The position numbers are program-made. Shown in pieces: positions 30,001-33,000 of a stretch of 63,589 nt of DNA. The stretch lies in assembly GCF_055900595.2 (NCBI RefSeq), contig NZ_PP320290.1; one strand, given 5' to 3'. Positions within the stretch are counted from its first letter, which is position 1. Each line of letters begins with the position of its first letter. The DNA is from a plasmid.

Positions 30001-33000
30001 GGAGGGACTGGCGCGACATGTCGGCGTGAACGGCAGAACGGTGCGCCGCTGGGTGAACGGAGAAAGTGACATCGCGTATTCCGTCTGGTGCGTCCTTTGC
30101 ATCGATGCCGGCTTACCGCCGATCTGGAAATAGCAGCGCAAAACACCGACGCGCAAACGTGCTTCCTGAACGTATCGGATATACGAAGGAAATATTATGA
30201 ATACTGATAACTATTTTTTCAGAGTCCCGGCCACACGCGGAATACAGGGCGGCATAGAACAATACATGCTGACGGTTCCTATGGTCGTGTTACGTCGTAT
30301 TCTTGCAATGGACAATGATGGCGATGTTATGGATCGCAGCCAGCGAGAAGCGAACAAAACGCGGGCCAAAAAAATACGGAATTATGTTGCCGGCGCAACA
30401 TCAAAACGAGCTCCCTATATTTTGCCGTCAATTACCGGAAATATTGATAGTCATGTTGAATTCCTTCCCAGCGAACTCTCGCCGGCAGTGGGGATTCTGG
30501 TAATGACTCCAACTTATTGATAGTGTTTTATGTTCAGATAATGCCCGATGACTTTGTCATGCAGCTCCACCGATTTTGAGAACGACAGCGACTTCCGTCC
30601 CAGCCGTGCCAGGTGCTGCCTCAGATTCAGGTTATGCCGCTCAATTCGCTGCGTATATCGCTTGCTGATTACGTGCAGCTTTCCCTTCAGGCGGGATTCA
30701 TACAGCGGCCAGCCATCCGTCATCCATATCACCACGTCAAAGGGTGACAGCAGGCTCATAAGACGCCCCAGCGTCGCCATAGTGCGTTCACCGAATACGT
30801 GCGCAACAACCGTCTTCCGGAGCCTGTCATACGCGTAAAACAGCCAGCGCTGGCGCGATTTAGCCCCGACGTATCCCCACTGTTCGTCCATTTCCGCGCA
30901 GACGATGACGTCACTGCCCGGCTGTATGCGCGAGGTTACCGACTGCGGCCTGAGTTTTTTAAATGGCGGAAAATCGTGTTGAGGCCAACGCCCATAATGC
31001 GGGCGGTTGCCCGGCATCCAACGCCATTCATGGCCATATCAATGATTTTCTGGTGCGTACCGGGTTGAGAAGCGGTGTAAGTGAACTGCAGTTGCCATGT
31101 TTTACGGCAGTGAGAGCAGAGATAGCGCTGATGTCCGGCGGTGCTTTTGCCGTTACGCACCACCCCGTCAGTAGCTGAACAGGAGGGACAGCTGATAGAA
31201 ACAGAAGCCACTGGAGCACCTCAAAAACACCATCATACACTAAATCAGTAAGTTGGCAGCATCACCGGGATTCTTAAAATTCCGATGGACGCTGATTTAA
31301 AATTATTCGATGGCCAGCACCGTGCGCTGGGTATTTTTGAATTTGTACGCGATTATTCCAATACGGAAGATACGATCAGCTTGTTGCTTACCGTTGGCCT
31401 GCCACTTGAGTTACGCCAGCAGTTTTTCGCTGATATTAATAACAACGCGAGCAAACCGGCAGCGGCGATCAGTATGGCATATAACAACAATGATCCGGTC
31501 AACCAGCTGGCAATGCATCTGGCCCGAACCGTCACCGGGCTGGCGGGCACAGTGGATTTTGAACACAACGTGGTCCCGGCGAAAAGCTCACGGCTGATCA
31601 GCTTTAAAGCACTGAACGATGCGACGAAAAAAATGCTCAACCTGCGGGCCAACAGCATTCCCTCGACGCAACAGCGTGATATGGCAGAAAAGCTCTGGAC
31701 TGCCTGGGCACAGGCGATGCGCTGGAATGATATTGCCCAGGATGATATCGCTGCGGAGTACCGTCAGGAGGCGCTGGGACTGCATGGCATCATGATAAAT
31801 GCGATCGGTATGGCAACGGCCAGGATGTTACGGCACAGAACACCTGAAAGCATCGAGAACCTTCTGGCCTGTGCGGAAAACGGAGACAACGGTTTTCATT
31901 ATCGGGAGTCGTTTGTACCTGAGTGCTGGGAAGGGAAGTGTGTTGATCCGGAGACTGGCACCATTAAAACTGACCGGCGGGCGCTTGAAGCAACGGCTGA
32001 AGCGCTGCAAAAGCTGATAGACCCGTTCGCAGATGCGCTGTGGTTGCGTGCTTATCTGCCAGTTGAAGAGGCGAGTGATACGGCATTACTGAAATATGCT
32101 GCTGACATCGAGAGTTATAAGCAGCGCACAGCCGTGCCGATGATCAATATCGTGGAGAAGCTGAAGGCGCTGGGTGACGGCGAACCGCAGTTCAGAGCGT
32201 CGGTGCTGGCTTCCCGTGAGGGGCTAAGCCGCTATCTGGCCGGGGCTGAAGGCTGACGCGGTGGTTGCCGCCTGCAGGGCAATACGGGCATCGAACCCGT
32301 ATTGCCCTGAAACGCGCTGAGCCGCTCTCTGGGCGCGCATTTAAAAAACCTGTACCCATCATCGTTTTTATGTCTTTGACGAGTCCTGCCCCCTATTCTG
32401 GCCTTTTCTGATGTGATCCCGCCCTGGTGTCTGCAAGTTAACTTAATTTTGACGCCCGCACAGCGTGTCTTCCCTGTTCATTTCTGCTCAGTTGCCGGCG
32501 TTTTCTGGCTGGCCTGTCGTACTAAAACACCTCTGGGCCCCTTCGGCTCCTGCCCGTCGGGCAGTCGTCAGCCACACTCCGCTAGCCAGGCAAAGCCTGG
32601 CAGCTCCGCCGAACCCCCTGCGGGGTTTCGGGCTATCGCTAGTGTCTGATGCCTGAACCCCTGCACCATGCCGGCAAAGCACCTTCATCGGGCTGATGGG
32701 GATCTGAAAAGCAAAATTTACAGGGAAAGGAGTTCAGGAAAAAACAAAGAAAATTAATCAGATAACGCTTGATTGTTATGGCTCATTAGACGTATAATGA
32801 TCACATCGAAAGGCAATAAGGCTTTTCGCGGTAGCGCCCCGACTGGCGCAGGAGTAACAAATTATGAGTAAAGCACTGACCCCCTCCCAGCTTAAAGCTG
32901 AACTGGAAACGCAGAAAGATGCGCTGCTGAAGGCGTGCCTGTATGCCCTCAACGAAATCCCTAACCGTCGTTTAAGTGGCCCGTATGCGTCCACGTATGC

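Follow-up and report, generated by a model that had tools for sequence, protein, structure and literature searches.

What is the GC-rich, apparently gene-free stretch in the leading region of pOXA-48, and does it act on plasmid DNA entering a new host? The window analyzed here, i.e. the whole stretch of 63,589 nt (contig NZ_PP320290.1, assembly GCF_055900595.2), is pOXA-48, an IncL/M (IncL) plasmid of the types MOBP and MPF_I. Between the stop codon of its DGQHR gene (32256) and the start codon of a 59-aa open reading frame (ORF; 32864) lies an interval of 607 nt, which dozens of pOXA-48 plasmids of 63.6 kb share at 100% identity. An earlier note had singled out positions 32290-32712 as a non-coding, hairpin-dense island and a candidate single-strand initiation signal (ssi) or Frpo-type single-stranded DNA (ssDNA) promoter, with a structured non-coding RNA as the alternative. 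We found that the island contains a conserved core of 118 nt (32537-32654), here named module A, which belongs to a large family of plasmid elements. On balance, we lean towards reading the island as a gutted Frpo unit whose module A acts as a boundary element on the transferred strand (T-strand).

All genes from ~27 to 39 kb are carried by the plus strand and are directed towards mobA/traI at 40 kb. The nic consensus of IncL/M plasmids (ACATCTTG/T; PMC8125031) was detected as ACATCTTGT on the minus strand at 40158-40166, so that the T-strand corresponds to the minus strand of the window. This bears out the claim that the island is situated in the leading region. It lies ~7.5 kb inside this region, where the T-strand is the template for the downstream genes, i.e. 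at a location suited to an ssDNA promoter.

The interval was free of convincing genes, and none was annotated in 32257-32863 in any record compared. Mechanical ORFs of 78, 63, and 66 aa in the island had no Pfam match and overlap a region whose homologues vary by insertions and deletions (indels) of lengths other than multiples of three and by compensatory stem changes, which supports its proposed non-coding nature. Its richness in GC was also confirmed (0.63-0.67 at 32500-32700 vs 0.33-0.53 on the flanks). Folding gave a divided answer. For the 423 nt of 32290-32712, the T-strand DNA fold had -67.6 kcal/mol, compared with -65.2 ± 3.9 kcal/mol for shuffled sequences (z = -0.60; 33 of 100 shuffles were equally stable), and the island overall is therefore not more hairpin-dense than expected by chance. 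The description as hairpin-dense holds for the 118 nt of 32537-32654, to which the excess structure was confined (z = -3.4 for the minus and -3.7 for the plus strand). The left 225 nt, folded as two halves, were unstructured (z = -0.2 and +1.6). Larger values for the complete 607 nt (z = -4.2 and -4.9) arise because this stretch also holds a perfect 15-bp hairpin at 32275-32309 and the hairpins of a downstream promoter cassette.

The structure of module A was derived with RNAalifold plus hand refinement from an alignment of 57 distinct copies. It comprises four helices, given here in gene-sense coordinates. A 5′ tail (CCCCTTCGGCTCC, 32538-32550) is followed by (i) hairpin H1 (32550-32564); (ii) the closing stem P1, in which GTCGTC.AGCCAC (32564-32575) pairs with GTGTCTGATG (32642-32651); (iii) hairpin H2 (32585-32601); and (iv) hairpin H3 (32609-32631). 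P1 encloses H2 and H3 in a three-way junction, and H1 stands as a separate 5′ hairpin. The hairpins named in the earlier note were all present, namely CTGCCCG/CGGGCAG at 32550-32564, GCCAGGC-AAA-GCCTGGC at 32585-32601, and the GAACCCC..GGGGTT stem within 32609-32631, as was the pair formed by TTGCCGGC (32491-32498) and GCCGGCAA (32670-32677). The enclosing ACACT/AGTGT arms of that note were in the wrong register; covariation backs the P1 pairing instead.

Among the aligned copies, invariant blocks alternate with hairpins of variable sequence and length; an H3 stem segment (CCGAA/TTCGG) is among the invariant parts. Standard pairs filled 90.0% of the paired cells of the family alignment, compared with 74.9 ± 0.5% when partners were shuffled and at most 45% when they were slid by one to three columns. 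Changes on both sides were seen in 23 of the 38 pairs. The pOXA-48 copy fits this pattern closely: every listed pair of H1, P1, and H3 is standard (including one G.T in P1), and the conserved blocks CCCCTTCGGCTCC, GTCGTC, ACTCCGC, CTCCGCCGAAC, GTTTCGGGC, GCTAG, and GTCTGATG are all there. A covariance model of the family (R1) found a single copy in the window, at 32537-32654, which was full-length and scored 106.3 bits (E about 1e-17). A weak further match on the minus strand at 16222-16347 (15 bits, E = 0.5) is probably due to chance.

Module A is widespread on enterobacterial plasmids. When 32300-32712 was compared with plasmids by sensitive BLAST, family matches outside IncL/M fell only at query positions ~227-358. 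Matches of module A were obtained in at least 5000 plasmid records, at ~75% identity and in two to four places in most of the records listed; these were mostly conjugative plasmids of Klebsiella and E. coli. The R64-type sequence was present in 2988 of 5426 complete E. coli genomes with one to ten copies (median three), 8061 places being on plasmids and 87 on chromosomes. Scanning one genome per species for the motif CTCCGCCGAA-N8-18-GTTTCGGGC gave genuine copies in Klebsiella, Enterobacter, Citrobacter, Pantoea, Erwinia, Serratia, Kluyvera, Leclercia, Cedecea, and others, along with chance hits elsewhere. Model R1 detected two copies in R64 and no intact copy in the leading region of plasmid F. 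Degenerate traces (GTCGTGAACGGAGCC..GTCTCCGCC) were seen in F upstream of Frpo1 and Frpo2 (13480-13562 and ~8125-8147), with partial model hits of 8-11 bits. Plasmid F has thus lost module A, which most natural IncF and IncI plasmids carry.

We could not find module A described, and it may be a previously undelimited, structurally conserved element: a literature search by topic and by sequence string gave no description, older work on the ssi signals of ColIb-P9, F, and R100 lying outside its coverage. Searching Rfam 15 with the island returned nothing at gathering thresholds and, in sensitive mode (E up to 10), only chance-level matches with E of at least 0.4 and scores far below gathering scores. 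Short coding sequences annotated as 'hypothetical protein' often cover module A, e.g. in E. coli RefSeq plasmids and in records L002 (3869-4135) and L007 (3369-3497). Given the covariation and the indels of lengths not divisible by three, such annotations probably do not represent genes.

The genomic surroundings of the family connect it to ssDNA promoters. Established and proposed Frpo sequences for comparison came from Samuel et al. 2024 (PMC11541004, Supplementary Table 2). Within ~110 nt downstream of 47 of the 62 other copies of module A, F ssiD, ColIb-P9 Frpo1, or Frpo′/Frpo* candidates aligned over 100 nt or more; ten of the remaining copies had short matches only and five had none, one of the five being cut by a contig end. 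For pGUE-NDM and a Klebsiella IncFII plasmid, module A ended at, or within ~25 nt of, the start of homology to F Frpo. The published Frpo1 homology of ColIb-type units begins at position 44 after module A, which consequently lies outside the defined ssi. Both R64 copies reside in stretches that passed the ssDNA-promoter screen described below, one of them in the intergenic region upstream of ssb. Taken at the level of sequence, these comparisons show a recurrent arrangement in IncF, IncI1, and other enterobacterial plasmids, a unit which in gene sense consists of module A, a spacer of 0-110 nt, an Frpo/ssi hairpin of ~330 nt, a leader, a ribosome-binding site, and a gene (often ssb). The copy in pOXA-48 is an orphan, having no ssDNA promoter hairpin 0-110 nt downstream, and intact orphan copies also occur in other plasmids.

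How much of such a unit remains in pOXA-48? No Frpo/ssi body was matched by BLAST, whether 32257-32863 was compared with the leading region of F or the arms with established and proposed Frpo sequences. Local alignment did reveal a remnant of the end of a class-1 Frpo unit at 32679-32736 (plus strand), which comprises the base of the promoter hairpin, an A-rich leader, and the ribosome-binding site AAGGAG, with no start codon after it. This stretch aligned to the end of Frpo-ssb units (GCAACTCAACGGGTGATGG...AAGGAGATTCATCATG, where ATG is the ssb start) with a score of 22, and neither the maximum nor the mean of the observed scores was reached by any of 100 dinucleotide shuffles. Invariably, the alignments were located 385-480 nt downstream of the module A of the target. 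A profile hidden Markov model of the 105-nt spacer that usually follows module A had no match in the window, and the spacer matches TGAACCCCTGC and CACCATGCCGGC, picked by eye, were dropped on that account. The alignments show the island as what appears to be a decayed ssDNA-promoter unit, which in the IncL/M lineage has kept an intact module A and the last ~58 nt and lacks the ~385 nt of spacer and hairpin. An internal deletion of ~385 nt from an ancestral module A-Frpo-ssb unit would be the simplest reading.

A motif within this remnant, AAATTTACAGGG(G)AAAG(G)AGT, occurs at 28456-28478, 32711-32733, and 36270-36292, each time ~50 nt upstream of a cassette promoter, and in inverted orientation next to the origin of transfer (oriT) at 39372-39399. 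The island copy (32711-32733) is part of the Frpo-leader remnant. We considered AAATTTACAGGGAAAGGAGT at 28456 and 36270 as further leader remnants and rejected these, as the motif was not significant on its own.

We repeated the ssDNA-promoter screen as published (PMC12672017), using 300-nt windows of the T-strand, DNA parameters, and a threshold of -75 kcal/mol. As controls, ssp2, Frpo2, and Frpo1 of F and the promoters of R64 were recovered at -75 to -96 kcal/mol. No window of pOXA-48 between 26 and 40.2 kb fell below -75 kcal/mol (mean -42.6 ± 8.7, minimum -73 at oriT), and the best 300-nt window in the island reached -59.4 kcal/mol. The island is therefore probably not a working Frpo-type promoter. 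Its earlier assignment as ssi/Frpo-type is thus upheld for its ancestry, on account of the module A core and the remnant at 32679-32736, but not for a present promoter, as there is no Frpo body and the best window does not reach the threshold. The most stable T-strand folds of the leading region belong to the non-coding, oriT-proximal stretch 39250-39600, which with -73 kcal/mol per 300 nt was just short of the threshold.

The only promoter-like site in 32200-32900 was a sigma-70 promoter, TTGATT-18-TATAAT (32769-32798, plus strand), which belongs to a cassette repeated throughout the leading region. A 6-bp inverted repeat, TCATTA-N6-TAATGA (32783-32800), overlaps its -10 box. The 5′ untranslated region (UTR) of the cassette (32807-32863, plus strand) contains hairpins at 32807-32828 and 32834-32849 (GCGCC..GGCGC), the sequence AGGAG, and leads to the ATG of the 59-aa ORF at 32864. 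The promoter block TTGATT..ATGGCTCATTAGACGTATAAT was present in eight copies (26983, 28501, 32760, 34063, 34855, 35350, 36325, and 38477; window positions 26983-38515) upstream of leading-region genes. In most copies of this block, the -10 box is covered by TCATTA-N6-TAATGA, which has the appearance of a common operator bound by a plasmid repressor (zygotic induction). Also repeated is a 28-nt block (GGTAGCGCCCCGACTGGCGCAGGAG, 28-42 nt), with 10-11 copies between 27034 and 37346 directly before start codons, e.g. at 32827-32854. This block is the GCGCC..GGCGC hairpin fused to a ribosome-binding site and represents a shared 5′UTR element. The cassette promoter is a conventional double-strand promoter, probably under repressor control. 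It was the sole box pair detected, and it lies in an internal loop of a predicted long-range fold. The same consensus scan missed the genuine Frpo promoters of F and R64; as it failed on these positive controls, its negative outcome was not counted against an ssDNA promoter.

That long-range fold raised the question whether positions 32375-32863 could be a novel large ssDNA promoter, formed on the T-strand by pairing between the left arm and the region of the cassette promoter, with module A at the tip. The left arm is a CT-rich spacer (32312-32536, no strand assigned). When the whole interval was folded, 32375-32510 paired with 32660-32860 through collinear helices of 6-8 bp, and the interaction energy of the left arm with 32655-32863 was beyond chance, as judged by shuffling the arm (z = -2.8 and -3.5). 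One compensatory change, found by inspection in relative L005, also agrees with such a promoter. The remaining evidence speaks against it. The changes in the long-range helices of the relatives were otherwise mostly one-sided and pair-breaking, the -10 box and the promoter spacer fall into an internal loop of 41 × 24 nt, the 300-nt windows reach only -59 kcal/mol, and no comparable partner accompanies this promoter in its seven other copies. The left arm is, moreover, the least conserved part and the fastest-evolving stretch of the locus. The left 214 nt of 32300-32712 occur only in IncL/M-type plasmids; the spacer had 80-85% identity to plasmid L008, compared with 90-100% for the neighboring genes, and is unstructured when folded alone. 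Compared on either strand with known and candidate Frpo sequences and with the flanks of 57 family members on both sides, it showed no homology beyond that of shuffles. We regard a promoter of this kind as highly improbable; the idea of the whole island as a giant promoter hairpin was rejected, since the complementarity is above chance but neither promoter-like nor conserved, and the left arm was treated as a weakly constrained spacer rather than a promoter arm.

To which strand does the structure of module A belong? Several comparisons favored the minus strand. At variable paired positions of the model-based alignment, 43 A.C compared with 19 G.T were counted in gene sense, and pyrimidine-pyrimidine mismatches were about five times more common than purine-purine mismatches; seen from the minus strand, the mismatches are therefore G.A, G.G, and G.T, which are more stable. 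With DNA parameters, the minimum free energy of the minus strand was lower in 61 of the 62 copies (by 4.35 kcal/mol on average); with RNA parameters, the minus strand was more stable in 49 of the 62. Corrected for composition, z was -1.70 for the minus and -1.03 for the plus strand, the minus strand being lower in 55 of the 62 copies. These strand tests suggest that module A most likely acts as the minus strand, i.e. the T-strand, which we take as a moderate lean and not as proof.

These results bear directly on a function at the RNA level, since module A might be part of a gene-sense transcript, e.g. the 3′ end or a processing or stability element of the upstream operon transcript, or a small RNA. 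Such a role would agree with the element often starting only some tens of nucleotides past the preceding stop codon (e.g. in record L003), with an invariant G.U-compatible pair in P1 and one P1 site where G.T outnumbers A.C, and with the gene-sense strand in the window also beating its shuffles (z = -3.7). However, the strand tests favor the other strand in 55-61 of the 62 copies, gene-sense mismatches are mostly of the pyrimidine-pyrimidine type, a U tract for termination is missing, and no Rfam family matched even at E up to 10. Module A is also located upstream of, and not inside, the transcripts from the adjacent ssDNA promoters. The structured non-coding RNA put forward as an alternative in the earlier note is disfavored by the strand tests, and we rate it as quite improbable.

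From its position and structure, we infer that module A may act on the T-strand to control read-through or the synthesis of the complementary strand. On the incoming minus strand it would form a GC-rich three-way junction with a flanking hairpin, and its invariant blocks suggest recognition by a host protein. On the T-strand, module A is always situated 3′ of the promoter hairpin. From this side the complementary-strand DNA polymerase would arrive, as would RNA polymerase reading through from an upstream unit. As a protein-bound boundary, module A could stall or organize these polymerases and thereby keep the adjacent, early-expressed unit single-stranded with its promoter folded. We propose this boundary role because module A is placed on the side where polymerases arrive and because there is a precedent for stalling in F: ssp2, an ssDNA-promoter hairpin, stalls complementary-strand synthesis and thereby prolongs early expression, and the stall is resolved by UvrD (Fraikin et al. 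2026, bioRxiv 10.64898/2026.01.09.698686).

A number of points weigh against this picture of a gutted unit with a boundary element on the T-strand. Frpo1 and Frpo2 of F work in vivo (PMC9849209) in a plasmid that has no intact module A, so that promoter activity does not depend on it. The invariance of stem sequences points to specific recognition by a protein and not to a purely physical barrier. About 95 nt of module A have been lost in a widespread and successful sister lineage, the K. grimontii type, whose plasmids are among 285 records that match the left spacer at 60-80% identity; the element is therefore dispensable there. As the downstream promoters of pOXA-48 need double-stranded DNA, a barrier seems counter-productive in this plasmid, and the retention of module A would fit a priming role or a relic. 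Regarding the strand, the invariant P1 pair is G.T in gene sense, another P1 position has six G.T vs two A.C in favor of the gene-sense strand, and the stability gap between the strands could partly come from purine richness. Finally, the deletion scenario depends on a single 58-nt alignment, the spacer profile having found nothing in the window.

The priming role deserves separate consideration. Module A could be an ssi on the T-strand at which the host primes synthesis through a PriA-type primosome, DnaG, or RNA polymerase, as at the minus origins of filamentous phages and rolling-circle plasmids. For pOXA-48, this would mean fast conversion of the leading genes at 32.7-39.5 kb to double strand and thereby a switching on of the sigma-70 cassette promoters. 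A structured, strand-biased element of ~120-135 nt with invariant blocks suits this function. It is intact in IncL/M plasmids, whose leading genes have double-strand promoters, and it is found as orphan copies elsewhere; moreover, host factors presumably have to prime the conversion of incoming F DNA more than once, Frpo transcripts being the known sites. An ssi is nearly as plausible as the boundary role and fits better with the retention of module A in pOXA-48. On the other hand, model R1, run with filters off, had no match in the phage G4 genome, a test of homology to its complementary-strand origin and not of function. By eye there is neither a DnaA box nor a conserved CTG, F converts normally without module A, and the element has been lost in one IncL/M-related lineage. 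In most plasmids, a primer made at module A would also run into the adjacent promoter hairpin and turn it off. Taking both sides into account, we consider an ssi possible but doubtful.

Alternatively, the island might be non-functional debris, with module A as the not-yet-decayed part of a dead Frpo unit whose conservation reflects recent ancestry and recombination instead of selection. Consistent with this, the promoter body is deleted, the ribosome-binding site remnant is left without a start codon, the adjacent spacer evolves faster than anything else in the locus, and a related lineage deleted most of module A with no obvious harm. Divergence among IncL/M plasmids is low in any case, their genes being 90-100% identical. 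Yet all four helices and the invariant blocks of the pOXA-48 copy are intact, and its 106 bits are within the range of the family. Across six IncL/M lineages, the 118 nt of module A have not a single substitution, whereas the adjacent 214-nt spacer differs by up to 17%; unrelated plasmids, too, keep intact orphan copies. Mere debris therefore seems rather unlikely to us. Module A in pOXA-48 is either still used in a promoter-independent role or a well-preserved relic. For the family, we tentatively suggest that module A is a cis-acting ssDNA element at which a host factor on the T-strand sets the start or stop of complementary-strand synthesis relative to the early leading genes, independently of the adjacent promoter.

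Among known systems, the class-1 ssDNA promoters (Frpo1/Frpo2 of F, i.e. ssiD, and ssi1-3 of ColIb-P9/R64) come closest. Like the island, they are found in the leading region on the T-strand and share the orientation of the leading genes; the end of their unit is homologous to 32679-32736, and module A of the island is the element found 0-110 nt upstream of them in most plasmids. Unlike these promoters, the island has no ~330-nt hairpin, neither by homology nor by comparable stability. Module A, for its part, lies outside the published Frpo/ssi boundaries and is missing from F. Two low-certainty candidates of 400 nt, Frpo*4 from an insect metagenome and Frpo*5 from Salmonella (PMC11541004), include module A, entirely or in part, at the 3′ ends of their T-strands, as judged by inspection. 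There, it falls within generic upstream windows that were picked for promoter boxes and is neither delimited as an element of its own, assigned a structure, nor set apart from the promoter, while in pOXA-48 it stands alone with no promoter. With ssp2 of F, module A has in common a GC-rich structure of the T-strand in the leading region that lies in the path of complementary-strand synthesis proceeding from DNA that enters later. The two are unrelated in sequence. They also differ in kind: ssp2 is itself a promoter hairpin, and module A a three-way junction that lacks promoter boxes and whose role as a roadblock is putative.

Complementary-strand origins offer a further comparison. The origin of phage G4 is of similar size (~120-150 nt) and likewise consists of multi-hairpin ssDNA with conserved blocks that functions on one strand, although homology is absent. 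The same description applies to the primosome assembly sites of the phiX type and to the single-strand origins of rolling-circle plasmids, the likeness being one of description only. The cassette of pOXA-48 resembles the CUP-type repeated promoter cassettes in the leading regions of IncN plasmids in layout only (a sigma-70 promoter, an operator-like repeat, and a UTR block in 8-11 copies). This likeness to repressor-controlled zygotic induction concerns the cassette, which is not part of module A.

Several other features of the window were noted. The perfect 15-bp hairpin just past the DGQHR stop codon (CAGGGCAATACGGG.. / ..CCCGTATTGCCCTG, 32275-32309, no strand assigned), taken from the helix list of the T-strand fold, is kept in IncL/M relatives with only one-sided changes. 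It had been called the terminator of the DGQHR gene; the stem is there, but it has no T tract, and a terminator scan of 32200-32900 scored no sites. The DGQHR (DndB-like) gene itself is cut into two annotated fragments by an IS1 element (~30514-31211), and IncM relatives carry an intact gene of 1284 nt. Near oriT, the exact nic consensus falls within an annotated MobA/NikA-like ORF (40035-40562 in record coordinates, which are 12 lower than window coordinates), which suggests that the annotated start of this ORF may have been placed too far upstream. Other Rfam matches in the window were two copies of RNA-OUT in inverted orientation, as in IS10-type ends (9418-9486, plus strand, and 11810-11878, minus strand), and the repBA regulatory pseudoknot at the end of the window (63468-63589, plus strand).

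Priming, conversion, and the transient single-strandedness of the incoming strand matter for early anti-defence expression, and few cis elements that govern them are known, i.e. the Frpo/ssp promoters and the ssp2 roadblock of F. Thousands of resistance plasmids (IncF, IncI1, and IncL/M) carry module A next to these promoters, and it is an obvious candidate for the missing control site; its absence from the laboratory F plasmid may explain why it was overlooked. If the suggestion made above for the family is true, the orphan copy of pOXA-48 would show that module A works independently of an adjacent promoter. The screen indicates that an ssDNA promoter of Frpo grade is missing from the leading region of the epidemic plasmid pOXA-48, which appears to rely on the repeated double-strand promoter cassette instead; anti-restriction genes and ssb are therefore predicted to be expressed with another timing after transfer.

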